Shown here: in pieces, positions 6,375 to 43,937 of the stretch
Position numbering within the stretch: position 1 is the stretch's first letter
How the letters are laid out: each line of letters begins with the position of its first letter
The notes under the pieces: generated by a model
Told to the model about the DNA's origin: nothing
Seen by the model: the letters and a program-made list of their open reading frames with translations, nothing else
Databases searched by the model: none
Assembly (NCBI GenBank): GCA_964244115.1
Contig: CAXTHM010000014.1
Span: 330 to 64,329 of the forward strand
Length of the DNA: 64,000 nt
DNA from: an uncultured Thermomicrobiales bacterium
GTDB lineage: Bacteria; Chloroflexota; Chloroflexia; Thermomicrobiales; UBA6265
Direction: 5' to 3'
Translations under genes and position numbers: made by a program

Positions 6375-6675
6375 CGATCCTTCTGGGCGCTGGGCGTCAC
6401 GGTCGCCAGGATTGTAGTCATCCGGTCAGTCAGGCGCTATGCCTGGACGGACCGGCGCCTGGATCGTGTCGATCCTCGTGTCCGGCCCGATCGCGGGCCC
6501 CGATCCGTCGCCAGCCCATGCTCCGGCCAGCCAGAGGTCGGGCCGCTCGGGCCGCATCCGCCATCGACCGGCGGATCGGCGCGTGCGATACCCTTCTTCG
6601 AGCCGACCGTTCGATGTCGATCGTCCCGCCAGGCGGCGGGCACCGGCACCGACTCGATTGAGGGAGCACATCACC

Positions 6676-29870: not shown

Positions 29871-30259
29871 CGATGACCCCGATCACTCCGTCGATGAGAA
29901 CGCTCAATACCGTCAATCGCCCTTAGGCGCCGCAGAACCGGACGCCGCTATCGAGCGTTAGGTTAGGTAATGGCCCGGGCCACCCCGTCCGGATAGCGCC
30001 AGGGTTGTCCCGATCGGACCATCAACCGGATGGGTCGGTCGTCTTGACGCCCGGTCAACGCGCTGTCAGCATTGCTTTCAAACGCCCCCTCAGGCGATGT
30101 GATCCGCGCCCGATCCGGCCCGCGCACCGAACCCGGGACCGCCGCATCGTCGCCGGCGCCGGTCCGGCGGCCCTTCGACCGGGCCGCCAGCGGGACCGAT
30201 CTCTCACCCAGCCTGGAGTACTCGTCCGCGTGAATCAGTACCGCCGCCCCTCGTACGCC

Positions 30260-32776
30260 ATGGCCCCACCCACCCGCTCGGCCCGCTGGCCGTGGGCGCT
30301 GCTGATCGTCGTACTGCTCGCGATCGGCGCGATCGGCGCCCTGATCATCACCGACGGCAACCTCACCGGTGGCGACGACGGCCCCGAGACCGTGCCCGGT
30401 CCCAACGGCGAGATGATCATCGTCTCGCGGACCAGTCCGTCCGGAGAGGCGTCGGCGTCGGCGCCGGTCGCGTCGGCACCGACCGACGATGACGCGGGAT
30501 CGGCCGGCGACCCGGCCGCGAGCCCGGCCGATGGCAGCGCCCTCGCCAGTGCCGGGCCGACGGTCCCGCTCCCGACGTCGACGCCGGCTGGCCCGACCAA
30601 CACCGAGCTGGCCGCGGACTGGGCGGCGACCTGGCAGACCGGCGATTTCCAGGCGATGTACGGTCTGCTCAGCGACGCGGCCAGGGACACGATCTCCGAG
30701 GACGACTTCGTGGCTCGCTACCAGGCGATCTACGACCGCGCCACGATCACCAACGTCGTCGTCACGCTCGGCACCGACCCGCTGGCCGCCGACGCCGACG
30801 CCGTCCCGTTCAACGCCGCATTCACCTCGACGGCGCTCGGCGAGTTCGATCAGGACAACACCCTGCCGCTGGTTCAGCAGAACGGGGTCTGGACCGTCGA
30901 CTGGACGCCGTCAGCGATCTTCGACGGGCTCGACGACGACGGCTGCGTCGACCTCCAGAGCGACCCGACCGAGCGCGGCCGCATCCTCGACCGCAACGGC
31001 GAGATCCTCGCGCGGGACGATTTCTTCGACATCATCGGGGTCGACACCGGCGCGATCACCGACGCGGACGGCCTGAACCGCGGTCTGGCCAGTCTGCTCG
31101 GGATGAGCGCGGATGACGTCGCCGCGGCCTGGGCCAATGGCGTCGACGGTCAGTTCACTCCGATCCGTGGGCTCCCCGAGCGTCAGGTGACGCCGGAGAT
31201 GCTCGGCGAATTCGACCTGATCGACGGTGTCCAGGTCCAGCGGACCTCGGGTCGCTCCTACCCGTTCGGCGCCGTCGCGGCCCACATCACCGGCTACGTC
31301 ACGGTTGCGAGCGAGGAGGACATCGCCGCCGACCCGACCATCGCCGCCGGCAGCACGATCGGCCGGTCGGGACTCGAGGCGGGGGCCAACGACACGCTGG
31401 CCGGTGTCTCCGGGCTGGCGCTCTCGGTCGTGGACTGCACCTCCCGGGCGACCCGATCCACGATCGCCGAGCGGGCGGCCGTGCCAGGGCAGGACCTGAT
31501 CCTGACGATCGACATCGGCCTCCAGCAGGCGGTCGACAAGGTGCTGACCGACGTCGAGGGCACGGATGAGCGCGGCAGCGCCGTCCTGCTCGACCCGCGC
31601 AACGGGGCGGTCCTGGCGATGGCCTCCCACCCGACCTACGACCCCAACGGCTTCGTGCTCGGGTTCGACGAGAAAGCGCTGGCCCGGATCAACGACGACA
31701 CGCTCGCCCCGCTTCGCAACCGCGCCGCTGACAGTGCCTATCCAGTCGGATCGATCTTCAAGATCATCACGATGGCCGCCGGGATGGCCCACCTCGGCTA
31801 CGACGAGACCACCGTCCTGGAATGCCCGTCGTCGTACGAACTCAACGGCAACATCTACAACGACTGGGTGGTCGAGTGGGGCGAGCAGCCGCAGGGGCAA
31901 CTGACGCTTCACGACGCCCTTGTCCAGTCCTGCAACACCGTCTTCTATGACATCGGCGCCAAACTGGACCAGCAGGACGACCTGTTCCTGCCCGACATGG
32001 CCCGGTCGTTCGGGCTTGGCGCGCCGACCAACATCCCGTACCTGCCCGAAGTCGGCGGGACCGTCCCCGACGCCGCCTGGAAGGCGGAAGTCATCAGCGA
32101 CGGCTGGTCGACCGGCGACGCGATCAACCTCGCGATCGGACAGGGTTTCCTCGAAGCGACCCCGCTCCAGATGGCCAACGCCTACGCGACGATGGCCAAC
32201 GGCGGCACGCTGCTGGAGCCGTACATGGTCGAGTACACCCAGATCCCCGGCGGCCCCGCCACCCGCGTCGGTGAGCGCAAGGAGGTCGGCCAGGTGCCAC
32301 TCGACGCCACCCAGGTCGGCCAGATCCAGCAGGCGCTCCGCGACCAGACCAGCAACGCCGAGGAGCGCGGCTCGGCCCGGGTCTTCGGGGCCGCCTACCC
32401 GTTCGCGATCGCCGGCAAGACCGGGACGTCCGAGAGCTCGACCGAGCGCGGCAGCCAGCCCCACTCCTGGTTCGCCGCCTTCGGCCCCTGGGAGGACACC
32501 AGTTCCGTCCCGACGATCGCGTCCATCGTGATGCTGGAGAACAAGGGCGAGGGCGGCAAGGTCGCGGCCCCGGCGACCAAGGCGATCTACGACTACTACA
32601 TGACGACCGACCTCGCCGACCGGACCGACAGCGACGGGTCACCACCGCAGGCCATCGAGCCCGACCCGGCCGAACAGTACCCGGCCACCCTGCCGGCCAC
32701 CTCGCCGGCCCCGAGTACGAGCGGCCGCCGTCGCAAGGCGACCGTCCGGCTGCGTCCACGTCGCGTGGACGCATGA
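30260..32776 (+). CDS. class B penicillin-binding protein (transpeptidase) with NTF2-like N-terminal domain
   Basis: TM anchor WPWALLIVVLLAIGAIGALII. NTF2/MecA_N-like WAATWQTGDFQAMYGLLSD. SxxK = VGSIFKIIT, SxN = VQSCNTVF, KTG = AGKTGTSE. Low-complexity P/A/T tail. Start set at ATG 30260. Confidence 0.85.
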   Translation: MAPPTRSARWPWALLIVVLLAIGAIGALIITDGNLTGGDDGPETVPGPNGEMIIVSRTSPSGEASASAPVASAPTDDDAGSAGDPAASPADGSALASAGPTVPLPTSTPAGPTNTELAADWAATWQTGDFQAMYGLLSDAARDTISEDDFVARYQAIYDRATITNVVVTLGTDPLAADADAVPFNAAFTSTALGEFDQDNTLPLVQQNGVWTVDWTPSAIFDGLDDDGCVDLQSDPTERGRILDRNGEILARDDFFDIIGVDTGAITDADGLNRGLASLLGMSADDVAAAWANGVDGQFTPIRGLPERQVTPEMLGEFDLIDGVQVQRTSGRSYPFGAVAAHITGYVTVASEEDIAADPTIAAGSTIGRSGLEAGANDTLAGVSGLALSVVDCTSRATRSTIAERAAVPGQDLILTIDIGLQQAVDKVLTDVEGTDERGSAVLLDPRNGAVLAMASHPTYDPNGFVLGFDEKALARINDDTLAPLRNRAADSAYPVGSIFKIITMAAGMAHLGYDETTVLECPSSYELNGNIYNDWVVEWGEQPQGQLTLHDALVQSCNTVFYDIGAKLDQQDDLFLPDMARSFGLGAPTNIPYLPEVGGTVPDAAWKAEVISDGWSTGDAINLAIGQGFLEATPLQMANAYATMANGGTLLEPYMVEYTQIPGGPATRVGERKEVGQVPLDATQVGQIQQALRDQTSNAEERGSARVFGAAYPFAIAGKTGTSESSTERGSQPHSWFAAFGPWEDTSSVPTIASIVMLENKGEGGKVAAPATKAIYDYYMTTDLADRTDSDGSPPQAIEPDPAEQYPATLPATSPAPSTSGRRRKATVRLRPRRVDA

Positions 32777-32980: not shown

Positions 32981-33063
32981 CGAGATCGAGAACACGCCGC
33001 GACCGGAGCCCGGCCCGTTGCCCGACACACCGTGCGACGGCCCAGTACGCAGCCGGTTCTCGC

Positions 33064-33281
33064 ATTGCCGGGCGGCTGCGGCGCCCGGTCAGAGGCAATT
33101 GCTTTCGGATTTCGTCGGCAGTGAAGCTAGCATCAGGTGACAGGTCACGAGCGGCCGATTCCATTCATCAATATTCGTGAATCACCCCTGAGCCGGGCGG
33201 CTTTAGCCTCCGGGTGCGCCAACGGGCGAGCCCGGAAAGTCGAGCATTTTCGAGTTGCCGGGCGGCTTCAGCACTCGGTCC
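33064..33281. repeat. three family-B hairpin units upstream of the E1 gene
   Basis: ATTGCCGGGCGGCTGCGGCGCCCGGTC (33064-33090), CCCCTGAGCCGGGCGGCTTTAGCCTCCGGGTGCGCC (33185-33220), TTCGAGTTGCCGGGCGGCTTCAGCACTCGGTCC (33249-33281). Confidence 0.7.
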
Positions 33282-33459
33282 GGAGCGCTCGCTTCATGGA
33301 GTCCGTCCGGGAGAGAAGCGCAGTCCTGGAGGCGATCACCGCAACAGCACCGCCCGGCCCATCCGGCCCGTGGATACATCGACCGGCAGCCCCTATCATT
33401 GTCCGCACGCCTGTTCGCGTCGTTCCCACAGCCCCTCGCCCGAAGGAGACTGGCCCGCG

Positions 33460-34704
33460 ATGCCGCCCCCGGTCGCCTTCCTGCCCTCTACCGAATCGAT
33501 CGCCCCCGACCCCGCCGACCGTTACGCCCGGCAGCGGCTCCTGCCGTGGTGGGACCAGGACCGGCTGGCCGCGGCGCGGGTCGTCGTCGCTGGGGCCGGC
33601 GCCGTCGGTAACGAGGCGCTCAAGCTGCTCGCCCTCGTTGGTGTGGGCGAGATCGTCGTGGTCGATTTCGACACCGTCTCGCCCTCGAACCTGAGCCGGA
33701 CCGTCCTGTTCCGGGCCGAGGACGTCGGGCAGCCCAAGGCCGCGCTGGCCGCCCGCCGGACGAGGGAGATCAACCCGGAGGTCCACGTCGCCGCGATCGA
33801 CGGGGACATCGGCCGCGACCTCGGGCTGGCAACGCTGGCTGGGGCCGACGTCGTCCTCGGCGGGCTGGACAGCATCAACGCCCGCTGGTCGCTGAACCGG
33901 CGCTGCCTCCAGGCCGGCGTCCCCTGGATCAACGCCGGGATCACCGCCTCCGATGTCCAGGTCAGCCGGCACGTCCCCGGCGAGGGCGCCTGCTACGAGT
34001 GCACCTTCACCGAGGGGATGGCGCGGCGGTTCAACGCGCGCTCCTCCTGCACCGGGCTCGTCCGCCGGACGCCGGACCGGACGGTGCCGACGACCGCGAT
34101 CGGCGCCTCGGTCGTCGCCGGGCTGATGGTCCACGACGCGCTCCGCTTCCTGCACGACCCGGCCACCGGGCTCCGGGCCGGCCAGCGCCAGACCCTCCTG
34201 CTGGATGGCTATCGCCAGTTCCTCGACGATCTGCCCGTCGACCCGGACTGCCCGGCCCACACCGACCCGGTCCGCGACTGGACCACGACCGACCGTGACC
34301 CGGCCACGACCTCGGCCCGGGCACTGGCCAGTACCGCCGGGCTGTCGGAGGCGACCTGGCTGGAGTTGACGTTCGAGCTCGTTCTGGGCTTCTCCTGCCC
34401 CGCTTGCGGCGTGACGGAGGATGTCGGGCGACCGACCGCCGCCGTCTACGAGGAGGAGATCCTCTGCCCGACCTGCCGGCAGGAACGGATCGTCGCCCGT
34501 GGCACCCGTGTCCCGCTCGACGGCCCGCTCGCCGAACGGCCCCTGGCCAGCCTCGGCGTCCCGCCGCACGATCTGGTCGCTGTCGGAATCGGCGACCGGG
34601 CCGGAACATGGCTGGAGACGGGCGGGGAGTCACCGTGGCGAACCATCCCGGACCGACCGACACAGCACCGACCCGAAACCGTACCGACAGGAGCCCAGCG
34701 ATGA
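33460..34704 (+). CDS. ThiF/MoeB-family E1-like ubiquitin-like-protein activating enzyme
   Basis: RYARQRLLPWW, Rossmann VVVAGAGAVGNEALKLLALVGVGEIVVVDFDTVSPSNLSRTVLF, CYEC, SSCTG. C-terminal extra domain with CPACG...CPTCR. GAAGGAGA RBS before ATG 33460. The stop overlaps the next start (ATGA). Confidence 0.85.
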   Translation: MPPPVAFLPSTESIAPDPADRYARQRLLPWWDQDRLAAARVVVAGAGAVGNEALKLLALVGVGEIVVVDFDTVSPSNLSRTVLFRAEDVGQPKAALAARRTREINPEVHVAAIDGDIGRDLGLATLAGADVVLGGLDSINARWSLNRRCLQAGVPWINAGITASDVQVSRHVPGEGACYECTFTEGMARRFNARSSCTGLVRRTPDRTVPTTAIGASVVAGLMVHDALRFLHDPATGLRAGQRQTLLLDGYRQFLDDLPVDPDCPAHTDPVRDWTTTDRDPATTSARALASTAGLSEATWLELTFELVLGFSCPACGVTEDVGRPTAAVYEEEILCPTCRQERIVARGTRVPLDGPLAERPLASLGVPPHDLVAVGIGDRAGTWLETGGESPWRTIPDRPTQHRPETVPTGAQR

Positions 34705-35048
34705 CCGAGCCCATCCAGCAGCCCACCCCCGGCACCCCCAACGAGATGACGCTGAACATCCGGACCGCCAATCGGGACCGCAAGGCCGAGATCGCCGTCG
34801 ACCCGACCGTGACGGTCTCGGAGATCCTCGAAGCCGCCATGCAGAACTGGGCCCTGCCGACGGACTACGACTACGTCGTCCGCAGCGACCGCCTCGGGAC
34901 CCAGCTCCGCCCCTCGGCGACGCTGATCGGCAGCGGCGTCCGCGAGGGCGACATCCTCGAGATCCAGCCGATCGCCGACGCCGGCAGCTCGGCCGGTCGG
35001 CAGGTCCTGCTCTGGCTGGACCCGGTCGGAGCCTGCCCGTGGGCGTGA
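34701..35048 (+). CDS. small ubiquitin-like (beta-grasp-sized) protein, probable precursor
   Basis: 115 aa wedged between the E1 and E2 genes with overlapping stops and starts. The ~80-aa core ends ...GDILEIQPIADAG (Gly95), followed by a 20-aa tail. The fold is inferred from size, context and pattern, not proven. Confidence 0.65.
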   Translation: MTEPIQQPTPGTPNEMTLNIRTANRDRKAEIAVDPTVTVSEILEAAMQNWALPTDYDYVVRSDRLGTQLRPSATLIGSGVREGDILEIQPIADAGSSAGRQVLLWLDPVGACPWA

Positions 35049-35566
35049 TGATCCGCCGGCGGCAGGCCGACCTCGAACGGCTCCGCGAACTGGCGGCGGC
35101 CAACCCCGGCCGGATCGAGATCGTCGCCGTCGAGGGCGAGCCCCCGACGATGATCCGCTTCCGGCTCACCTGCCAGAGCATCACCGAGCTGTCCGCATCG
35201 GGCCAGCCCACCCTCGGCGGCAGCCACCTCCTCCGGGTCCACTTCGGCCAGCGCTACCCGCTGGAGCCGCCGCTGGTCTACGTCGAGTCGCCGATCGCCA
35301 ACCCGCACGTCTTCCCGACCACCCGGCGGATCTGCATCGGCGCCGCCTGGATCCCGTCGGAGACGCTCGACCTGTTCACCCAGCGCGTCTGGGCGATCCT
35401 GGCCTGGGACCCGCAGGTGATCGACCCCGGCAGCCCGGCCAACATGACCGCGCTGAAGTGGTCCGAGGACCACCGGGACCGCCTGCCGATCGAGCCGACC
35501 CGCCTCCGGAACGCCGGGACCCTCGTGCAGGTCGACGCCAAACCGCGCCTGAGCTGGCGGGGCTAG
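35048..35566 (+). CDS. E2-like ubiquitin-conjugating enzyme (UBC fold)
   Basis: LLRVHFGQRYPLEPPLVYVESPIANPHVFPTTRRICIGAAWIPSETL matches the YPxxPP...HPN...C...W.P block of E2s. Candidate catalytic Cys96 = 35333-35335. An alternative GTG start lies at 35045. Confidence 0.8.
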   Translation: MIRRRQADLERLRELAAANPGRIEIVAVEGEPPTMIRFRLTCQSITELSASGQPTLGGSHLLRVHFGQRYPLEPPLVYVESPIANPHVFPTTRRICIGAAWIPSETLDLFTQRVWAILAWDPQVIDPGSPANMTALKWSEDHRDRLPIEPTRLRNAGTLVQVDAKPRLSWRG

Positions 35567-35596
35567 ACGCGGACGGGCGGCTCGACGGACAACGAT

Positions 35597-35660
35597 CGTA
35601 GGGTCACGGGCTTGCCCTGACCGGTCGCCGCAGCGGCCATCGCCCCGCAGGGCGATAATT
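35597..35660 (-). repeat. family-A repeat inserted between the E2 and JAB genes
   Basis: CGTAGGGTCACGGGCTTGCCCTGACCGGTCGCCGCAGCGGCCATCGCCCCGCAGGGCGATAATT. Confidence 0.8.
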
Positions 35661-35694
35661 ATTGGCCGGGCGGCCAGAGGCGGAGGACAGGTCG

Positions 35695-36480
35695 ATGGTC
35701 GCGTGGAAGAGCACAACCGAGTTCAGCCCGGAGCCCCTCGACCTGGCTGCCTACGCCGCGGCCCATCACCTCGCCCTGCCGGAGACGGATAACGCGATCG
35801 GGCCGACCGACCCGGTCCTCGTCATCGACCACGCCGCCTGGGAGGCGCTCTGGGACCACGCCCGGTCGGCCGACGTCGAGGTCGGCGGGCTGCTGGTCGG
35901 CGAGGTCTTTCGGGATACGGCGACTGACCGACCGGTCACGATCGTCCGGGGCGCGATCCCGGCCATTGGCGGAGCGTCGTCCGCCGTCAGCTTCACCTTC
36001 ACGCCGGACGCGTGGGACCACCTCACCGCCGCGCGTGACCACTCGTGGCCGGAGCTGATCACCGTCGGCTGGTTCCACACCCACCCCAACCTCGGCGTCT
36101 TCTACTCTGGGACCGACCGCAACACGCAGCACGCCTTCTTCAACCGCCCCTGGAACGTCGGTATCGTCGTCGACCCGCTGGCGCTCTCGGATCAGGTCGG
36201 GCTGTTCGTCGGCGCCCACAGTCGCCGCATCCCGGCCTCGGACCTCGTCGTCGCACCGGAGCTGATTGCCGTCGCACGGCAGCCGGTCGCCGGTGCACGG
36301 GTGCCCGCCGCGCCGGTCCCGGAGCCGATCCGTCCCGTCCCGACGCCGATCCGCCCGACGATCCGCACCGTCTGGGACACCTACGGCTCGCGAGTCGCGG
36401 CGGCGGCGGCCGGAGCGGCAGTCGCCGTCGTGGCGGTGGCCGCGACCGAATGGGTCCGCTCGCAGCGCAGGGAACCGTAG
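35695..36480 (+). CDS. JAB/MPN+ (JAMM) metalloprotease with Pro-rich linker and hydrophobic C-terminal segment
   Basis: VEVGGLLVGE (Glu) and GWFHTHPNLGVFYSGTD, an exact HxHx7SxxD at 36076-36117. C-terminus: ...PVPEPIRPVPTPIRP...RVAAAAAGAAVAVVAVAATEWVRSQRREP. GGAGGA RBS before ATG 35695. Confidence 0.85.
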   Translation: MVAWKSTTEFSPEPLDLAAYAAAHHLALPETDNAIGPTDPVLVIDHAAWEALWDHARSADVEVGGLLVGEVFRDTATDRPVTIVRGAIPAIGGASSAVSFTFTPDAWDHLTAARDHSWPELITVGWFHTHPNLGVFYSGTDRNTQHAFFNRPWNVGIVVDPLALSDQVGLFVGAHSRRIPASDLVVAPELIAVARQPVAGARVPAAPVPEPIRPVPTPIRPTIRTVWDTYGSRVAAAAAGAAVAVVAVAATEWVRSQRREP

Positions 36481-37521
36481 ATGAGCGAGCGCGCCGAGCA
36501 GATCTCCTATCTGCAACGCCTGATCGACCGGATGACCGGCCGGTCGGCGGCGGCACACGAGGCGGCCAGTGAACCCGCCCATCTGCTCACGCCCGACCCG
36601 CGCGAGTCCCAGCAGCGCCACGGCGACCGGCCCCGGACACCCGGCTCCCGCCCACCATCCCGAACGCCGGCGTCAACGCCGAGAGCGCTGGAATCCCGCA
36701 CGCCGGAGCGCATGGCCCGGCCGACCCCGTCGACGATCTCGTGGGGCGGGGCGGCGGGTCCGTCCGTGCTCGACGACCCGCTCCACTTCATCGGCCAGAC
36801 AGACCCGCTCGAAGGGACCGCCCTGCTGGCCGGGGAGCAGGTCTCGGTCTGCACCCGCTGCGGCGCGGCCTATCACCTCGCGACGATGAGCTTCATCCGC
36901 GGCGCGACCGGCGGCGCCTGCGTCAGTTGCGGCACCGCCGGGCTGTTCCAGACCCTGACGCTGGAGGCCGGCGCCCAGACCATCGCCGCCCCGCCACCGC
37001 CGGTCATCACGATCCCGGTCGCGAACGAGCGCAAACCCATCCGTCCGACCCCTACCGCCGCGCCGCCCCGTGACGCCGCCGGCCGGCCGATCATCCAGCT
37101 CCATCAGGTCCGCGACCACATCGGCGAGGAGGTCGCCTTCGAGGGCCGCGTCCTCCGGGTCCATCTCACCGGCGGCGGGGCCTACTTCCTCTACTTCGAG
37201 CGGGCGGCCCGGGTGCTCGACGGCTTCCGGGCCGTGATCCGGCCGCGGGACATCTTCCACTGGGAGATCGAGGGGCTCGTCCCGCCCGACGCCTACCCGG
37301 ACCAGTGGGTCCGGATCGCGGGGCGGATCGTCGACGACCCGCGCTGGCAACTGGAGATCCTGATCCAGCGGCCGGAGTCGATCCAGATCCTCGACGGCCC
37401 GACCGAGTCGGCCGGCTGGCGCCCGGACGACGGGCTGATCCCGGACATCCCGGCCCCGCTGCTGTCCGACGCCCCGGCCATGAAGTCGGAACCAGCCGCC
37501 CGGGTCCGCTGGCTGGATTGA
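36481..37521 (+). CDS. Zn-ribbon plus OB-fold-like protein of unknown function (candidate adaptor/E3-like/target)
   Basis: The start abuts the JAB stop (TAGATG). Disordered P/R/S-rich N-terminal third. CTRCGAAYH...CVSCG (C124, C127, H132, C147, C150; 36850-36930). C-terminal pattern IIQLHQVRDHIGEEVAFEGRVLRVHLTGGGAYFLYFE...FRAVIRPRD...DQWVRIAGRIVDDPRWQLEILIQRPESIQIL is typical of OB-fold modules. Confidence 0.6.
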   Translation: MSERAEQISYLQRLIDRMTGRSAAAHEAASEPAHLLTPDPRESQQRHGDRPRTPGSRPPSRTPASTPRALESRTPERMARPTPSTISWGGAAGPSVLDDPLHFIGQTDPLEGTALLAGEQVSVCTRCGAAYHLATMSFIRGATGGACVSCGTAGLFQTLTLEAGAQTIAAPPPPVITIPVANERKPIRPTPTAAPPRDAAGRPIIQLHQVRDHIGEEVAFEGRVLRVHLTGGGAYFLYFERAARVLDGFRAVIRPRDIFHWEIEGLVPPDAYPDQWVRIAGRIVDDPRWQLEILIQRPESIQILDGPTESAGWRPDDGLIPDIPAPLLSDAPAMKSEPAARVRWLD

Positions 37522-37565
37522 CCCGAACTGCCGAACGGCGCCATCGTGACCAAGGGAGCCAGACG

Positions 37566-38354
37566 ATGCAACCGAAACCGGCGCACCTCGAAGCACGCTA
37601 CGGCGAGCAGTTCTCCGACCAGTCGGTCGTGGACGCCTACGGGCTCCGGCCGCCCTACCCCGATGGCGTCATCGACCTACTCGCCGACCTCGCCGGTCCG
37701 ACGGGGGCCGTGCTCGACCTCGGCTGCGGGACCGGCGAGATCACCCGCCGCCTCGCCGGGCGCGTCGGCCGGATCGACGCGGTCGACCCGTCGGCGGCGA
37801 TGCTTGTCAGGGCCCGGTCGTTGCCTGGCGGGGACCAAGCGAACCTGTCCTGGATCCACGGAGCGGCCGAAGATGCTCCGTTCGACCCGCCGTACGACCT
37901 CGTCTGCGCCGCCGCCGCGCTCCACTGGATGGACTGGGCGGTCGTCCTGCCCAGAATCCGGGCGGCGCTGACCCCGTCCGGTCCGCTGGCGATCGTTGGG
38001 GACGGCGTGGCTACCGTCCCCTGGGCCGCCGACGCGCAGGTCGTGATCGATCGATATTCGACCAACCGGGATTACCGTCCCTACAATCTGCAAGCAGAAC
38101 TCGAGCAGCGCGGACTCTTCCGCGAGACCGGCCGCTACCGCTCCGAGCCGGTCCCGTTCGACCAGACGATATATGATTACGTCAACAGCTATCACGCTCG
38201 CAATGGCTTCTCCCGCGACCGGATGGACCCGGCCAAAGCCGACGCCTTCGACCGCGAGCTGACCGCCATCGTCGCCTCACACGTCACCGGCGATACCGTC
38301 CGGCTCATGGTCTTCGGCGCCATCGTCTGGGGCATCCCCGGACCCGCCGATTGA
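37566..38354 (+). CDS. class I SAM-dependent methyltransferase
   Basis: Motif I VLDLGCGTGEITRRLA, motif II RIDAVDPSAAML, post-II DLVCAAAALHWMDW. AAGGGAG RBS. Confidence 0.8.
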   Translation: MQPKPAHLEARYGEQFSDQSVVDAYGLRPPYPDGVIDLLADLAGPTGAVLDLGCGTGEITRRLAGRVGRIDAVDPSAAMLVRARSLPGGDQANLSWIHGAAEDAPFDPPYDLVCAAAALHWMDWAVVLPRIRAALTPSGPLAIVGDGVATVPWAADAQVVIDRYSTNRDYRPYNLQAELEQRGLFRETGRYRSEPVPFDQTIYDYVNSYHARNGFSRDRMDPAKADAFDRELTAIVASHVTGDTVRLMVFGAIVWGIPGPAD

Positions 38355-38450
38355 TCTCCCCTACCCCACAGACATCCCTTCGCCAGGCGCCCCTTTCCAT
38401 CGCATCACCCCGACGGCGGCCCGGCTAGTGGCCCCGTCACAGGAGCGCAG

Positions 38451-40508
38451 ATGAGCGACGACCCCACCGATCCCCAGGACGACAGCGCGACCGGCGCCGA
38501 GCCGGAACTGTCCAACAACGACGGCGGCATCGGCCGTCCGCCACCCCGAACCCCGCGCCCGCCCCGCCTCGACGAGCGTCGCGGCGGCCTACGCGGACCC
38601 AATGGCCGGATCATCCCGCCGGGCGGCTCCGGGCCGGGCCGGAATGGCCCCCCGGTCCCGACCGTCCGCTTCCTCACCGGGCAGGGTCAGGCCGACGGCG
38701 ACCGGACCGAGCGCGAGGGCGACGAGCCCGACGAGCCGACCAGCACGACGCCGCTGCTCGATGCGGCGGGCCGCGACCTGACCGCCCTGGCCCGAGCCGG
38801 CGAGCTACCGGACATCGTCGGCCGCGACCCCCAGATCCTCCAGCTCGCCCAGACGCTGCTCCGCCATGACCGCCCCGCGCCGCTCCTGATCGGCGAGTCC
38901 GGCATCGGGCGGACGGCGATCGTCGAGGGGCTCGCCGTCCGGGCCGTCGCCGAGGGGGCCGACCCGCGGCTGGCGAAGCTCCGGATCGTCCAGCTCTCGC
39001 TCGACCAGATGGGCGGCGACGCGATGATCCGTCCCCGGATGGCGAACCGCTTCGGCGCCGTTCTGGAAGAGGTCGTCGCCCACCCGGATACGGTCCTGTT
39101 CATCGACGGGCTGCACCTGCTGCTCGGCGGGACCCCGATCGAGATCGTCCCGGCCGACGTGCTGCGCGGCTTCCTCAACCAGCACGCCGGCCAGATGATC
39201 GGCACGACGACGCCGAAGATCGCCGAGGCGATGCTGAGCCCGCAGCGCGAGCTCGCCCCGTCGCTGATGCCGATCACCGTCGGCGAGCTCTCGGAAGAGG
39301 ATGCCCGGACGCTACTGACCCGGCAGGCCGGTGCCTACGCCGCCCACCATGACGTCGAGATCGGTCCGGACGCGATCGAGGCCGCCCTCGCCCTCAGCAT
39401 CCGCTACGTCTCCCAGGGCTGGTTGCCGCGCAAGGCCAGCGAGCTGCTCGACATCGCCGCCAGCCAGCGCAGCCTGCCCCTGCTGACCGGCCGGGCGAAC
39501 GGCGAGCGTCCCGTCGTGACGCCGGAGGCGATCGCCGCCGCACTCCACGCCCGCTGGGGGATCACCGCCCCGAGCTGGGACGCCGCCCAGGAGCACAGTG
39601 AGCCGACCCCGCTGGCCGCGCCGGCGGACCTCGCCGAGCGGCTGGCCGAACGCATCCTCGGGCAGCCCGAGGCGATCGGCGCCATGACCGACGCCGTCCG
39701 CGTCGCCGCCCTCGGGCTCCGCACGACCGACCGGCCCCGGGCCGTGATGCTGTTCGGCGGCCCGACCGGCGTCGGCAAGACGGCCCTCGCCCGGAACCTG
39801 GCCTCGGCCCTGTTCGGCTCCGAAGAGGCGCTGCTCCGGATCGACATGAGCGAGTTCCAGCAGCAGCACGTCATCGCCCGGCTACTCGGGGCGCCCCCCG
39901 GCTTCGTCGGCTACAACGACGGCGGCCAGCTCTCCCGCTTCCTCCGCGCCCACCCGGAGAGCGTCATCCTGCTCGATGAGATCGAGAAGGCCCACCCGCA
40001 GGCGCTCGACATCTTCCTCCAGCTCTTCGACGCCGGCCGGATCACCGATGGCCACGGCCAGATCCTCGACGCCCGCCACGCCGTCTTCATCATGACGACC
40101 AACCTCCCGATGAGCGACAACCACGTCACCCTCCGGGCTCGGCTGCGACCGGAGTTCCTCAACCGGATCGACCGGATCGTCCAGTTCCGGGCCCTGGAAC
40201 TGGAGGACCTCGAGCGGATCGCGTTGATGCGGCTGGAGACGCTGACCGCCCAGCTCCGCGCCCGGCAGATCATCCTGCGGGTCACGCCGGACGCCCTGAC
40301 CGCCCTGGCCCGGCCGGAGTCCGACGGGCGGGCTGCCAACGGTCGCACGGTCGAGCGCCGGCTGGACCAGGAGGTGGCCGGGCGGGTCGCCGAGTGGGCC
40401 GCGCTGCTGACCGGGATGGCGCCGGGCCAGCCGGTCGTCCTGACGCTGGAGGCCACCGCGACCGGCACCCGCGTCAGCCCGCCGGGGATGCTCGACGTCA
40501 ACGCCTGA
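38451..40508 (+). CDS. ClpA/ClpB-family double-ring AAA+ ATPase with degenerate D1 and no Clp_N domain
   Basis: D1: LIGESGIGRTAIVEGLA (Walker A Lys replaced by Arg) and VLFIDGLHLLLG (Walker B DE replaced by DG). D2 is canonical: LFGGPTGVGKTALA, VILLDEIEKAHPQALDIFLQLFDAGRITDG, LLGAPPGFVGY, PEFLNRID. The first ~100 aa are G/P/R-rich. No coiled-coil M-domain and no IGF/IGL-type loop seen. Confidence 0.8.
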   Translation: MSDDPTDPQDDSATGAEPELSNNDGGIGRPPPRTPRPPRLDERRGGLRGPNGRIIPPGGSGPGRNGPPVPTVRFLTGQGQADGDRTEREGDEPDEPTSTTPLLDAAGRDLTALARAGELPDIVGRDPQILQLAQTLLRHDRPAPLLIGESGIGRTAIVEGLAVRAVAEGADPRLAKLRIVQLSLDQMGGDAMIRPRMANRFGAVLEEVVAHPDTVLFIDGLHLLLGGTPIEIVPADVLRGFLNQHAGQMIGTTTPKIAEAMLSPQRELAPSLMPITVGELSEEDARTLLTRQAGAYAAHHDVEIGPDAIEAALALSIRYVSQGWLPRKASELLDIAASQRSLPLLTGRANGERPVVTPEAIAAALHARWGITAPSWDAAQEHSEPTPLAAPADLAERLAERILGQPEAIGAMTDAVRVAALGLRTTDRPRAVMLFGGPTGVGKTALARNLASALFGSEEALLRIDMSEFQQQHVIARLLGAPPGFVGYNDGGQLSRFLRAHPESVILLDEIEKAHPQALDIFLQLFDAGRITDGHGQILDARHAVFIMTTNLPMSDNHVTLRARLRPEFLNRIDRIVQFRALELEDLERIALMRLETLTAQLRARQIILRVTPDALTALARPESDGRAANGRTVERRLDQEVAGRVAEWAALLTGMAPGQPVVLTLEATATGTRVSPPGMLDVNA

Positions 40509-41035: not shown

Positions 41036-41238
41036 GTGTTTGGCAAGAAATCGCATGGCCGTGACCGCGTCGCCCAATATGGATCGCATGGTCCCTTGCC
41101 TTGATGGCCGCTGCGGCGGCCCGGATGGGCAATCTCCCCCTCCGGACGTCGTCGCCTTGCACGACCGGAAATGAGACCGACCGTGAACACGCCCGCCCTC
41201 ATCAGACACACCTTCAATTGACAGGGAATGGACCAGCA

Positions 41239-42513
41239 ATGATTACCCAGCACTACCCCCCAGCGGCTCCCGAGAGCACGCCGGACCCACGGATCTTCAG
41301 CAGCGAGGGACAGGCGTTCCTCGTCGGCGACACCATCTTCCTGCGCGGCATCGAGGACGAGGACGCCGTCCGCGCCAGCGCCTGGCGCGACTCTCCCTAC
41401 CCGATCAACGCCGAGCGGGCTGGCGAAATCATCAAGGAGATGACCGAGAAGCCCAAGCCCGGCAGCCGCTTCCTCGTCGCCTGCCGCCGCAGCGACGGCG
41501 AGCCGGTCGGCTCGCTGTCCCTGTCCCGCTGGCCAGGCAACGACCTCGACATCCCGGTGGACCTCTACGCCAACCCGGCCCTCCCCGACCGCGAGGCGAT
41601 CCGGGCCGAGATGCTGAAGCTGTTCATCGCGTGGGGCGCCAGCGAGGGCGAGCTCCCGGTGGTCTACATCGAGTTCGCCGACTCGCAGACCGAGCTCCGG
41701 GCGATGGCCGAGTCCCTCGGGATGCGCCACGCGGCCCTGTGGCGCGAGCAGCGCTGGCTCGACGGCGCCTGGCGGGACAAGCTCGCCTACGCCTGGCATA
41801 ACCCGGCCTGGATCCCGCGGCTCGGCGAGCCCGGCGTCGGGATCGACTTCGCCCTGCCCGTTGACGACGCCTCCCGCTGGCGCCCGCGGCAGTTCCCGAC
41901 CTACGGCACGCTCGGTGGCGACCCGCCGACCAATGCCGTCATGGTCGGCCCGCGCGTCTACCTGCGGCCGATCGAGATGGAGGACGCCCCGGTGATCGTC
42001 GCCGGCCAGCGCCGCGAGACCGAGACCTTCTTCGATGATGGCCGCCTGCCGGGGAGCGTCGCCCGGATGCGCCAGCACACCCGCGACCTGGTGAAGGACG
42101 ACATCCAGGAGTGGGTCCGGTTCGCCGTCTGCCTGCGAGAGACCGGCGAGATCATCGGCACCAACGGGATCGACTCCGTCGACCTGATCAACCGGACCGC
42201 CGAGACGGAGACGTTCTTCCACAACGCCGCCTACCGGGGCGGCGGCTACGGCTCGGAAGCCAAGCAGCTCCTGCTTGCCTACGCCTTCGAGCGCCTCGGG
42301 CTGCACTCCGTCTACAGCTGGGTCTGGGGGCCGAATACCCGCTCCGCCGCCGCGCTGCGCAAGCAGGGCTACCGCGAGTGCGGCCGCGTCTTCTGGGCCG
42401 GGACCAAGAACGGCGAGTACACCCACGCCTACACCTTCGACTTCCTCGCCGAGGAGTGGCGCGAGATGACGGCCCGGGCGGCCACTGCCGAGTCGATGGC
42501 GGTCGCCCGATAA
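41239..42513 (+). CDS. double-GNAT (RimJ/RimL-like) N-acetyltransferase, paralog 1
   Basis: Two acetyltransferase halves. The second carries the acetyl-CoA motif AYRGGGYGSEAKQLLLAYAFERLGLHSV...NTRSAAALRKQGYRECG. 424 aa from ATG 41239. Confidence 0.75.
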   Translation: MITQHYPPAAPESTPDPRIFSSEGQAFLVGDTIFLRGIEDEDAVRASAWRDSPYPINAERAGEIIKEMTEKPKPGSRFLVACRRSDGEPVGSLSLSRWPGNDLDIPVDLYANPALPDREAIRAEMLKLFIAWGASEGELPVVYIEFADSQTELRAMAESLGMRHAALWREQRWLDGAWRDKLAYAWHNPAWIPRLGEPGVGIDFALPVDDASRWRPRQFPTYGTLGGDPPTNAVMVGPRVYLRPIEMEDAPVIVAGQRRETETFFDDGRLPGSVARMRQHTRDLVKDDIQEWVRFAVCLRETGEIIGTNGIDSVDLINRTAETETFFHNAAYRGGGYGSEAKQLLLAYAFERLGLHSVYSWVWGPNTRSAAALRKQGYRECGRVFWAGTKNGEYTHAYTFDFLAEEWREMTARAATAESMAVAR

Positions 42514-42553
42514 CCGACCCCACCTCTACAAGGTTCGCCAGAAGCGGTGAATC

Positions 42554-42584
42554 CTGTAGGGTGGGGCAAGCCCCACCCTACGAA
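42554..42584. repeat. perfect hairpin related to the third arm of family A; likely terminator between the GNAT paralogs
   Basis: CTGTAGGGTGGGGCAAGCCCCACCCTACGAA (GTAGGGTGGGG / CCCCACCCTAC stem). Confidence 0.6.
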
Positions 42585-42671
42585 CCGTCGTCCCCACTGA
42601 ACGGCTTCGGTCAGCTCGGCCACCACGCAACCCCAACATATACCTCACCCCCACACAAACGGAGTCCCTAC

Positions 42672-43937
42672 ATGACCACCCAGACGTATCCGCCCCCGGT
42701 CGTCGAGGGCACGCCCGACCCACGGATCTTCAGCGGCGAGGGACAGGCGTTCCTCGTCGGTGAGACGATCTTCCTGCGTGGGCTGGAAGAGGAGGACGCC
42801 GTCCGCGCCAGCGCCTGGCACGACTCGCCCTACCCGATCAACGCCGAGCGGGCCAGCAAGATCATCAGGGAGCTGACCGAGAAGCCCAGGCCGGGCAACC
42901 GCTTCCTCGTCGCCTGCCGCCGCAGCGATGGCGAACCCGTCGGTTCCCTCGCCCTGCGGCGCTGGGCCGGCAATGAGCCCGACAATCGCCTGGGACTCTG
43001 GGCCGACCCGGCCCGGCCGGAGAGCGAGCGGATCAGGGCCGAGATGCTCGGGCTGATGGTGGGATGGGGCTTCGGCGAGGCCGAACTGCCGAAGATCGTG
43101 CTCGAGTTCGATGACGGTCAGGCGCCGCTGCGGGGACGGGCCGAGGCACTCGGGATGCGCCGCGCCGCCCTGTGGCGGGACGGCGTCTGGCGCGACGGGC
43201 AGTGGCGCGACCGCGTGCTGTACGAAGGGTTGCACCCGGCCTGGCTCCGGCGCCTCGGCGACCCCGGCCGCGGGATCGACCACGCGATAGGCGTGGACGA
43301 CCCGATCCGCTGGCGCCCACGACAGTTCCCGACGTACGGCACCGTCGACGGCGACCCGCCGATCAACGCCGTCATGGTCGGCCCACGGGTCTACCTCCGG
43401 CCGATCGAGATGCGGGACGCGGCTCCATCGGTCGCGATGGAGCGTCGCGAACCCGAGACGTTCATGGACAACGGGCGCTTCCCCTGGTCCGCCGCCGGGG
43501 CACGGCAGTTCGTGCGGGACAACGCGAAATCCGACCCGCCCGGGTGGGTCCAGTTCGCCGTCTGCCTGCGGGAGGACGGCCGGCACATTGGGACCAACGG
43601 GATCTGCGCCATCGACCGGCTCAACCTGACGGCCGAGACGGAGTCCTGGTTCCATGACCCGGCCTACCGCAATAAGGGCTACGGCTCCGAGGCCAAGCAA
43701 CTCCTGCTCGCCTACGCCTTCGAGCGCCTCGGTCTCCACTCCGTCCACAGCCATGTCTGGGGACCCAACACGCGCTCGGCCGCGGCGCTCCGCAAGCAGG
43801 GCTACCGCGAGTGCGGCCGGCTGGTCTGGCAAGGGACGAAGCACGGCGAGTACACCCACGCCTACCTGTTCGACTTCCTCGCCGACGAGTGGCGCGAGAT
43901 GACCGCCCGGGCCAGCGCCGCGGCTGGGAACGCGTAG
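42672..43937 (+). CDS. double-GNAT (RimJ/RimL-like) N-acetyltransferase, paralog 2
   Basis: Alignable end to end with 41239..42513. Identical runs include NAVMVGPRVYLRPIEM, GYGSEAKQLLLAYAFERLGLHSV and WGPNTRSAAALRKQGYRECGR. Confidence 0.75.
   Translation: MTTQTYPPPVVEGTPDPRIFSGEGQAFLVGETIFLRGLEEEDAVRASAWHDSPYPINAERASKIIRELTEKPRPGNRFLVACRRSDGEPVGSLALRRWAGNEPDNRLGLWADPARPESERIRAEMLGLMVGWGFGEAELPKIVLEFDDGQAPLRGRAEALGMRRAALWRDGVWRDGQWRDRVLYEGLHPAWLRRLGDPGRGIDHAIGVDDPIRWRPRQFPTYGTVDGDPPINAVMVGPRVYLRPIEMRDAAPSVAMERREPETFMDNGRFPWSAAGARQFVRDNAKSDPPGWVQFAVCLREDGRHIGTNGICAIDRLNLTAETESWFHDPAYRNKGYGSEAKQLLLAYAFERLGLHSVHSHVWGPNTRSAAALRKQGYRECGRLVWQGTKHGEYTHAYLFDFLADEWREMTARASAAAGNA

Follow-up and report, generated by a model that had tools for sequence, protein, structure and literature searches.

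A predicted ubiquitin-like precursor with a conserved glycine and a motif-bearing C-terminal tail in an E1-Ubl-E2-JAB operon of Thermomicrobiales

The DNA analysed here is a stretch of 64,000 nucleotides (the window) from an uncultured Thermomicrobiales bacterium (assembly GCA_964244115.1, contig CAXTHM010000014.1, positions 330 to 64,329 of the forward strand). It carries an operon in which the genes for an E1-like activating enzyme, a ubiquitin-like protein (Ubl), an E2 conjugating enzyme and a JAB/JAMM metalloprotease follow one another on the forward (+) strand. The Ubl is encoded with a 20-residue tail behind a conserved glycine, Gly95, and we consider this glycine to be the mature C-terminus, exposed by proteolysis, with a probability of about 0.8. 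In public databases, the proteins of the Ubl system are labelled 'hypothetical' or 'ubiquitin-like domain-containing'.

The Ubl gene, its conserved glycine and the operon enzymes

The open reading frame (ORF) of the Ubl precursor (pro-Ubl) spans positions 34701-35048 (+) and translates into 115 residues followed by a TGA stop. A Shine-Dalgarno sequence, AGGAG (34689-34693), lies 7 nucleotides (nt) 5' of the ATG, which overlaps the stop codon of the E1 gene as ATGA (34701-34704). The periodicity of G+C at third codon positions agreed with the Ubl frame, the window having a G+C content of 70%. A preliminary description of the locus had quoted a 115-residue protein that does not end in Gly and that carries a 20-residue tail after ...IADAG, and both statements were borne out by the translation. 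The N-terminal leader (residues 1-15, 34701-34745, +) is variable in sequence, measures 9-15 residues in the close clade and was modelled at a predicted local distance difference test (pLDDT) score of about 50. It is followed by the beta-grasp core, which ends in ...QPIADAG (residues 16-95, 34746-34985, +) and whose last codon, GGC at 34983-34985, encodes Gly95. The tail, SSAGRQVLLWLDPVGACPWA, comprises residues 96-115 (34986-35045) and runs up to the stop at 35046-35048. The calculated masses were 12,470.9 Da for the full-length protein, 10,362.5 Da for residues 1-95 and 2,126.4 Da for the tail peptide. The same architecture was found in 29 distinct tail-bearing orthologues, and because so many independent assemblies encode it, the tail is neither a frameshift artefact nor a chance extension of the ORF; a sequencing artefact was ruled out by the same 29 sequences. 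A separate observation concerns K28 (34782-34784), which lies inside the invariant stretch RTANRDRKAE and is the sole lysine of the mature Ubl (1-95). It would be the only lysine linkage site if Ubl chains form.

An AlphaFold2 (AF2) model of pro-Ubl was built on a 16-sequence alignment. It presented a ubiquitin/SUMO-like beta-grasp spanning residues 16-94, with a core pLDDT of 82-88, strands at 16-22, 28-33, 58-62, 67-69 and 85-90, a helix at 39-50 and a short helix at 91-94. Residues 96-108 were modelled at a pLDDT below 50 and without secondary structure. A tail that forms an integral strand of the fold, which the preliminary description had named as an outcome that would speak against the precursor, was not seen in this model, where the last beta-grasp elements are the strand at 85-90 and the helix at 91-94. 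Docking of the tail in cis on its own beta-grasp, in the manner of a SUMO-interacting motif, was also considered and is unsupported, the tail having a pLDDT below 50 and no strand. The best Foldseek matches of the model were SUMO1/2, ubiquitin variants, NEDD8 and the Caldiarchaeum ubiquitin 6fj7, all at a probability of 1.0, with a template modelling (TM) score of 0.83, a root-mean-square deviation of 1.7 Å and 24% identity for 6fj7. A sequence search for solved relatives of the Ubl with the clade profile returned nothing significant and no BilA; the wider Ubl profile did reach ubiquitin, weakly, in the PDB sequence search.

The conservation of Gly95 was followed across the family. Residues A92, D93, A94 and G95 were invariant in the 16 closest homologues, and the residues after the Gly varied in both length and sequence. 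An exhaustive profile search yielded 106 Ubl relatives, in which a hidden Markov model of the core only was used to locate the domain end. The domain ended in Gly in 90 of the 96 members that could be aligned (77/83 outside the close clade), and G95 was the sole invariant column in an alignment of 52 diverse family members. The C-terminal half of the profile aligned with ...TLHLVLRLRGG of ubiquitin, which placed G95 on Gly76. The earlier suggestion that Gly95 is the candidate mature C-terminus is therefore supported by its conservation and by its equivalence to Gly76 of ubiquitin. The residue before the Gly was Ala in 80 of the 90 members and Gly in 5, so that the Ubl ends in Ala-Gly and has no C-terminal Gly-Gly.

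The residues beyond the Gly are dispensable and variable across the family. Outside the clade, 18 proteins had none, 22 had 1-3, 20 had 4-10, one had 11-30 and 16 had more than 30, several of the long ones being fused to an E2 domain. In the homologue comparison proposed earlier, the Gly thus proved to be conserved, and the tail length to vary from 0 to more than 30 residues. Sister loci with the same gene order, E1-Ubl-E2-JAB, illustrate this at close range, since the Ubl ends in ...QPLADAG directly before the stop in L018, L020 and L021, and others add R, DY, SQR, SAPRR or TEELLV after the Gly. Among the 29 distinct clade sequences, the 80-residue core was 94% identical and the linker just after Gly95 was 37% identical, with insertions and deletions, which puts the boundary of conservation exactly at Gly95. 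Other architectures occur in the wider family. Natural Ubl-E2 fusions were found in P0068, P0073, P0080 and P0096, where helix 1 of the E2 begins about 4 residues past the conserved Gly; P0017 and P0018 are tandem-Ubl proteins; and P0059, P0064, P0078 and P0108 are proteins of 1000-1600 residues with five or six Ubl-like repeats.

The gene order E1-Ubl-E2-JAB was retained wherever the sequence reaches in 21 related loci, including distant ones with 52-61% Ubl identity. The named genome records place the close clade in Thermomicrobiales, Chloroflexota, and the operon is surrounded by housekeeping and metabolic genes and not by a defence island. The E1-like adenylating enzyme (33460-34704, +; Pfam ThiF 9.4e-54) has 414 residues when read from the ATG at 33460; a longer ORF starts at 33214, and the orthologue in L001 was called at 414 residues. 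It consists of one ThiF domain (residues 32-260 of 414) and a C-terminal CxxC...CxxC zinc ribbon. In the alignment, the nucleotide-binding motifs and the CxxC zinc ligands were kept, and the crossover-loop Cys in RYSCTG was invariant. Its best solved relatives, among the best 60 PDB sequence matches, were the active adenylation domains of UBA7/UBA1 and MccB. A promoter-like site was noted 5' of the gene, at 33371-33399.

The UBC-type E2 (35039-35566, +) has 175 residues from a GTG at 35039 and matched Pfam UQ_con at 1e-5 (25.6 bits against a cut-off of 27). A word-indexed search for its homologues returned close relatives only, and the E2 comparisons consequently rest on the related loci and not on a deep alignment. 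The sequence NPH(V/I)F...C.G, which includes an HPN-like motif, was invariant, and the active-site Cys was found in an NPHVF...RICIG context in all loci. UbcH5/E2 D3 and Ubc9 were its best solved relatives among the best 60 PDB sequence matches, and an AF2 model of the Ubl-E2 fusion P0068 (pLDDT 88.9) matched eukaryotic E2s.

The JAB/JAMM metalloprotease (35695-36480, +) has 261 residues from the ATG at 35695, within an ORF that opens at 35662, and scored above the Pfam cut-offs for Prok-JAB (3.6e-7) and JAB (1.7e-6). Its motif is complete, with the E in EVGG and HTHPNLGVFYSGTD, which reads HxHx7Sx2D, and is conserved in all loci. The best solved relatives were Rpn11/PSMD14 (5e-10) and the Caldiarchaeum Rpn11-like 6fjv. 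The C-terminus of the enzyme (about 30 codons, roughly 36390-36477) holds the hydrophobic stretch VAAAAAGAAVAVVAVAATEWV and then basic residues, with a KD19 hydrophobicity of 1.91 at residues 245-263 of the 272-residue ORF from 35662. A comparable segment was found wherever the C-terminus is present, distant loci included (LSWFLPMACLVLAVLLGAWFFF in L018). This segment is a predicted tail anchor, which would place the deubiquitinase at the membrane. NCBIfam held no model for the Ubl, the E2 or X346, a 346-residue protein encoded downstream of the JAB gene, and the best NCBIfam matches of the E1 were ThiF and MoeB (134.8 against 275 bits).

The propeptide and its overlap with the E2 gene

The putative propeptide was divided into three parts, beginning with a hypervariable linker, S96-Q101 (34986-35003, +), of 37% identity and 6-17 residues, which carries a tandem duplication in P0165. 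The second is a hydrophobic motif, V102-L-L-W105-L-D107 (35004-35021, +), recognised from its conservation among 28 motif-bearing clade members, in which the W is present in 28/28, the L at position 2 in 24/28, the L at position 5 in 25/28 and the D in 26/28. Trp105 is hence kept by 28 of the 29 clade members, P0009 being the one without the motif. The third part, P108-A115 with the TGA (35022-35048, +), was characterised in a nine-locus codon comparison; it holds the Shine-Dalgarno sequence of the E2 gene and overlaps the E2 start. In the preliminary description, the tail had been singled out as a hydrophobic sequence containing Trp and Cys that might serve as an autoinhibitory or localisation propeptide. 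The Trp proved to be conserved; C112 did not, being replaced by A, S, T, G, N, V or R. Autoinhibition in a general sense agrees with CsUb, for which any extension has been shown to block activation by the E1 (PMC5654768), and it is the V/I-L-x-W-L-D motif, rather than the Cys, that would underlie a specific role.

The end of the tail most probably also holds the beginning of the E2 gene. In the nine-locus comparison, the final Ubl codons, CC(G/A) TGG GCG TGA, were found to hold (A/G)TG GGC GTG in the +2 frame. The codon at 35039 is GTG in the window and ATG in L006, L008, L012 and L013, and the ATG at 35048 is changed to ATC in L005 and L008. Gene callers also place the orthologous E2 start 10 nt inside the Ubl ORF. 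The true E2 start is thus most probably the GTG at 35039 and not the ATG at 35048, as judged from these codon patterns, and the two genes overlap by the last 10 nt of the Ubl ORF. The sequence GGAG (35028-35031) lies 7 nt 5' of this GTG, within the Ubl tail. Together with the ATGA overlap of E1 and Ubl, this 10-nt overlap suggests translational coupling along E1-Ubl-E2. The E2 translation signals may have shaped the conserved 'PWA' end of the tail, together with the G/E that precedes it by a few residues; the W of 'PWA' could alternatively belong to the set of W motifs described below and have a role at the peptide level. A further candidate, in which the tail would be an out-of-frame part of a longer E2 N-terminus, was rejected, as the E2 frame 5' of 35039 encodes Arg/Pro-rich junk and the overlap amounts to just 10 nt.

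These signals bear on the strongest alternative to a functional propeptide. It accepts the precursor and holds that the tail has no function: a stop codon would have been lost, the former Ubl-E2 spacer would now be read through, and its conservation would act at the nucleotide level, through the E2 Shine-Dalgarno sequence, the E2 start and possibly a hairpin that pairs with the Shine-Dalgarno sequence and ties E2 translation to that of the Ubl. We regard it as possible, with a minority of the probability. The E2 start does lie within the last Ubl codons, with GGAG or GAGG 6-8 nt upstream, inside the tail, in the loci compared, and the Ubl-E2 spacer of short-tailed relatives measures roughly 2-60 nt. 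The synonymous codon identity, moreover, was 0.88 in the motif and 0.73 in the core. A 10-bp hairpin was predicted at 35010-35033, in which the codons of L104-W105-L106 (CUCUGGCUGG, counted towards this explanation as the WLD codons) pair with the E2 Shine-Dalgarno region (CCGGUCGGAG), and it appeared in the minimum-energy fold of the window and of L011-L013.

The hairpin was not recovered in the more divergent loci L001, L006, L007 and L008, and in L005 the Shine-Dalgarno sequence pairs with another upstream segment, yet the loci that lack it still keep the peptide motif (ILCWVD, VFVWLL, VFVWLD). The fold energy of the region was not unusual when compared with shuffled sequences (z = -0.64), and an Rfam search of 33000-38500 returned no family. 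RNA structure as the cause of the motif was rejected on this z score and on the confinement of the hairpin to near-identical sequences. At the protein level, codon position 2 was the most conserved position in the motif and the substitutions preserved hydrophobicity (V/I, L/F), and P0010 keeps VLVWLD despite 12 residues inserted between this motif and the start of the E2. The pattern phi-x-W-x-[D/G] also closes the E2 and X346, where no start site lies downstream. Because hydrophobicity is kept, the P0010 insertion is tolerated and the hairpin is limited to near-identical sequences, a peptide-level constraint on V102-D107 is favoured, with moderate confidence from sequence comparison.

The shared pattern was located at LLWLD in the Ubl (35004-35021), LSWRG in the E2 (35549-35563) and VRWLD in X346 (37504-37518). 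The E2 ends in ...KPRLSWRG after a variable linker, and [KR]-x-phi-x-W-x(1-3) was found at this position in all loci and in the Ubl-E2 fusions; in each of the 15 clade homologues, X346 has a Pro-rich linker and then the end ...RVRWLD/G. Among the 46 predicted proteins of the window, [VILF]-x-W-x-[DG] occurred in the last 12 residues of the Ubl, the E2 and X346 only, at a background rate of 0.00085 per residue and for a pattern that was defined after it had been seen. The JAB protein begins with M-V-A-W-K in most loci (35695-35709 in the window). In the AF2 model of P0068, the C-terminal KW forms a beta-bridge (residues 253-254) after a disordered linker, at a block-mean pLDDT of about 76. The V/I-L-x-W-L-D motif is possibly a docking motif, and it may be a common one that the propeptide shares or mimics. 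A more far-reaching proposal is that the propeptide motif and the phi-x-W motifs of E2, X346 and JAB dock to one common site, which would make maturation a regulated and spatially confined switch; we put this forward tentatively and think it rather doubtful. Under the docking proposal, the pro-Ubl tail may deliver the precursor to the membrane-anchored JAB, or may, until its removal, act as a competitor of the E2 or X346 tail. If true, it would imply that maturation is regulated in a eukaryote-like ubiquitin system of Chloroflexota that had not been characterised before.

Maturation, competing explanations and neighbouring genes

The processing of Ubls by JAB domains in operons of this kind was predicted by Iyer et al. 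(2006) (PMC1779556). In the Caldiarchaeum system, CsRpn11 removes a 9-residue propeptide from CsUb (87 residues), and the uncleaved form is refractory to E1 (PMC5654768, PMC6043591). BilC cleaves Type II BilA after a conserved Gly and also deconjugates (PMC10557695). Because of the CsUb/CsRpn11 and BilA/BilC precedents, we infer that JAB cleaves the Gly95-Ser96 bond. The translation product would consist of the short variable leader, the 80-residue beta-grasp ending in ...IADAG95 and a 20-residue disordered propeptide. As long as the propeptide is attached, the Gly95 carboxylate would not be free and the E1 could not adenylate it. The Rpn11-like JAMM protease, apparently membrane-anchored by its C-terminal helix, would cut the Gly95-Ser96 bond, after which the E1 would adenylate Gly95 and load the Ubl onto the catalytic Cys of the UBC-type E2, from which it would be transferred to target amines. 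The same JAMM enzyme would probably also take the Ubl off its targets. The probability given at the outset belongs to Gly95 as the mature C-terminus; the adjacent JAB is proposed as the maturation protease, by analogy, with somewhat less confidence, and activation and conjugation are likewise proposed by analogy.

Several points weigh against this model. The case is known only from sequence comparison and predicted models, and low AF2 confidence in the tail is a different thing from demonstrated disorder. The Pfam scores of two components lie below threshold (Ubl to YukD, 24.0 against 27 bits; E2 to UQ_con, 25.6 against 27 bits), and the mature C-terminus is Ala-Gly rather than Gly-Gly. JAB is predicted to be membrane-anchored and the Ubl to be soluble, so that the model assumes that the protease can reach the precursor. 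Finally, the tail is 2-4 times longer than the characterised prokaryotic propeptides and has a conserved motif; a role that needs the tail to stay attached for some time is therefore conceivable.

The predicted anchor also underlies the idea that a housekeeping peptidase matures the Ubl and that the neighbouring JAB acts as a deconjugase only, an idea that can further draw on eukaryotic Rpn11, which does not process precursors (PMC6043591). We consider it improbable. In every examined locus that covers the position, the Ubl is accompanied by JAB; among the relatives are natural Ubl-E2 fusions, for which a dedicated protease encoded in cis is needed; and in both characterised prokaryotic systems processing is performed by the operon's own JAMM enzyme (PMC5654768, PMC10557695).

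A second alternative would remove processing and conjugation altogether, and treat the Ubl as a non-covalent beta-grasp adaptor of the YukD/EsaB type with a functional C-terminal region. YukD, which is not covalently conjugated (PMC1779556), was the sole Pfam family near threshold for this protein (PF08817, E = 6.8e-5), although the score remained under the gathering threshold and the solved YukD, 2bps, matched the family profile at E = 0.3, worse than ubiquitin. No ESX or type VII secretion genes were found in the neighbourhood, every locus has the Ubl gene flanked by those of an E1 and a UBC-type E2, and the Gly is invariant, with many relatives that stop exactly there; these observations make an adaptor very improbable. 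A ThiS/MoaD-type sulfur carrier, activated in the manner of ThiF/MoeB and trimmed by JAB for thiocarboxylate formation instead of conjugation, is hardly credible: bacterial JAB-ThiS/MoaD-E1 sulfur operons do exist (PMC1779556) and ThiF and MoeB are the best NCBIfam matches of the E1, but their scores are far under the cut-offs, the E1 has no rhodanese domain, no thiamine, molybdenum cofactor, cysteine-synthase or other sulfur-metabolism genes lie nearby, all loci encode a UBC-fold E2 whose catalytic Cys is invariant, and the Ubl itself, with an AG end instead of GG, matched neither ThiS nor MoaD in Pfam.

X346 (36481-37521, +) is a clade-specific protein of 346 residues with sub-threshold Pfam hits only; its 17 homologues belong without exception to the same clade. 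A short helix at the N-terminus is followed by a long disordered region rich in Pro, Arg and Ser and by a conserved CxxC-x4-H-x14-CxxC zinc ribbon, a single four-ligand one, in which C124, C127, H132, C147 and C150 are the only candidate ligands and make one zinc site (Prok-RING_1 E = 0.047, below threshold). Its C-terminal part comprises a conserved domain of about 100 residues with weak similarity to DUF5818, the Pro-rich linker and the ...RVRWLD end. X346 could be an E3-like adaptor or a substrate, and is not a canonical RING protein. A RING-type E3 ligase (srfp) was not detected in the operon, and the distant loci have no X346-like gene inside the operon. In L004, a homologue of the zinc ribbon (43% identity, residues 103-162) is encoded on the opposite strand upstream of the E1 gene, at positions 6387-6563 of that locus.

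X346, a methyltransferase and an AAA+ ATPase accompany the operon in the close clade only. The S-adenosylmethionine (SAM)-dependent methyltransferase (37305-38354, +) has an ambiguous start, as the ORF from 37305 overlaps the end of X346 and the domain begins near 37563; a promoter-like site was noted inside the gene, at 38058-38087. In L005, L006 and L013, X346 and the AAA+ gene have no methyltransferase between them, and for this reason the enzyme is probably not part of the Ubl system. The ClpA/ClpB-like double AAA+ ATPase (38451-40508, +) matched Pfam AAA_2 at 9e-45 and NCBIfam ClpB/ClpA below the cut-offs. About 100 disordered, Gly/Pro/Arg-rich residues take the place of the Clp N-domain, and there is no obvious M-domain. 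The Walker A sequence of D1 is GESGIGRT, with Lys replaced by Arg, and that of D2 is the canonical GPTGVGKT. This ATPase may be an unfoldase that works with the Ubl system; its membership is uncertain and it is not conserved in the distant loci. Further genes were recorded on both sides. Two tandem paralogous GNAT (Acetyltransf_3) genes of about 465 residues each (41101-43900) lie directly 3' of the AAA+ gene, as they also do in L001 and L002. Upstream of the operon, a class B penicillin-binding protein (MecA_N, PBP_dimer, Transpeptidase; 30005-32776) is encoded in all close-clade loci; its long ORF starts with an Arg-rich stretch that is probably untranslated, and the real start is likely further downstream.

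Comparison with known systems

The closest known system is the eukaryote-like operon of Caldiarchaeum and Asgard archaea. As in Caldiarchaeum CsUb/CsRpn11, the operon encodes a single-domain beta-grasp Ubl, an E1, a UBC-type E2 and an Rpn11-like JAMM protease, and the Ubl is translated with a C-terminal propeptide, the removal of which is proposed here by analogy. The two differ in the host, which is bacterial (Chloroflexota) in the present case, and in the C-terminus, which is Ala-Gly here and Gly-Gly there. The propeptide measures 20 residues here (13-38 in the clade) and has a conserved motif, compared with 9 residues in Caldiarchaeum. No RING-type E3 was detected in the present operon, its JAB has a predicted C-terminal anchor, and its order is E1-Ubl-E2-JAB.

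Among bacterial systems, the Type II BilABCD operon of Ensifer aridi is similar in having a Ubl whose Gly is universally conserved and precedes non-conserved residues, in the separation of E1 and E2, and in its cognate JAB. The tail of Type II BilA extends up to nine non-conserved residues past the Gly (PMC10557695), and an Ala-Gly remnant is left, as would be the case for the Ubl described here at the predicted site. PADLOC gave no BilA, BilB or BilC match for the window proteins or for any of the 52 family Ubls, and its BilD model matched the E1 weakly and partially (1.2e-6, 25.5 bits over about 100 residues). No Bil protein was present among the PDB sequence matches listed, which were complete for the Ubl and JAB and limited to the best 60 in the case of the E1, the E2 and the wider Ubl profile. 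Neither PADLOC nor NCBIfam assigned the Ubl, the E2 or JAB to Bil, Bub or CBASS. The present E1 has a single adenylation domain and lacks the N-terminal inactive domain of the Bil E1, the E2 is of the classical UBC type and not of the CEHH type, and the gene order differs from the Ubl-E2-DUB-E1 order of Bil. The housekeeping context likewise differs from the defence islands of Bil.

Bub (6E/DUF6527) operons (PMC11601603) are comparable in that they include Ubl-E2 fusions that need a cut after the Gly, as do the relatives P0068, P0073, P0080 and P0096. In contrast to Bub, the present system has no DUF6527/BubE protein and no JAB-E1 or E2-E1 fusion, its E1, E2 and JAB being separate proteins. 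The precursors of eukaryotic SUMO, NEDD8, ISG15 and Atg8 also have C-terminal extensions that mask the Gly, and the fold of the Ubl is nearest to SUMO and ubiquitin. Eukaryotic Ubls are processed mostly by cysteine proteases (SENP, UCH and Atg4), and their tails measure 1-11 residues. These tails are not known to share motifs with the E2.

In the literature searched, we found no paper that describes this system of Chloroflexota/Thermomicrobiales. Its enzymes, a UBA1/7-like E1 domain, a UbcH5-like E2 and an Rpn11-like deubiquitinase, look nearer to eukaryotic enzymes than do those of the characterised Bil and Bub defence operons, and the system therefore offers a testable case of Ubl maturation in an uncharacterised, eukaryote-like and possibly membrane-associated setting. 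For reconstitution, Ubl(1-95) can be expressed, or JAB co-expressed. The masking of a reactive Gly by a propeptide is already established in archaea, bacteria and eukaryotes, and for this reason what is described here is mainly its extension to a new lineage. Only the long propeptide, with a motif that is common to the E2 and X346 termini, is unexpected in comparison with these systems.

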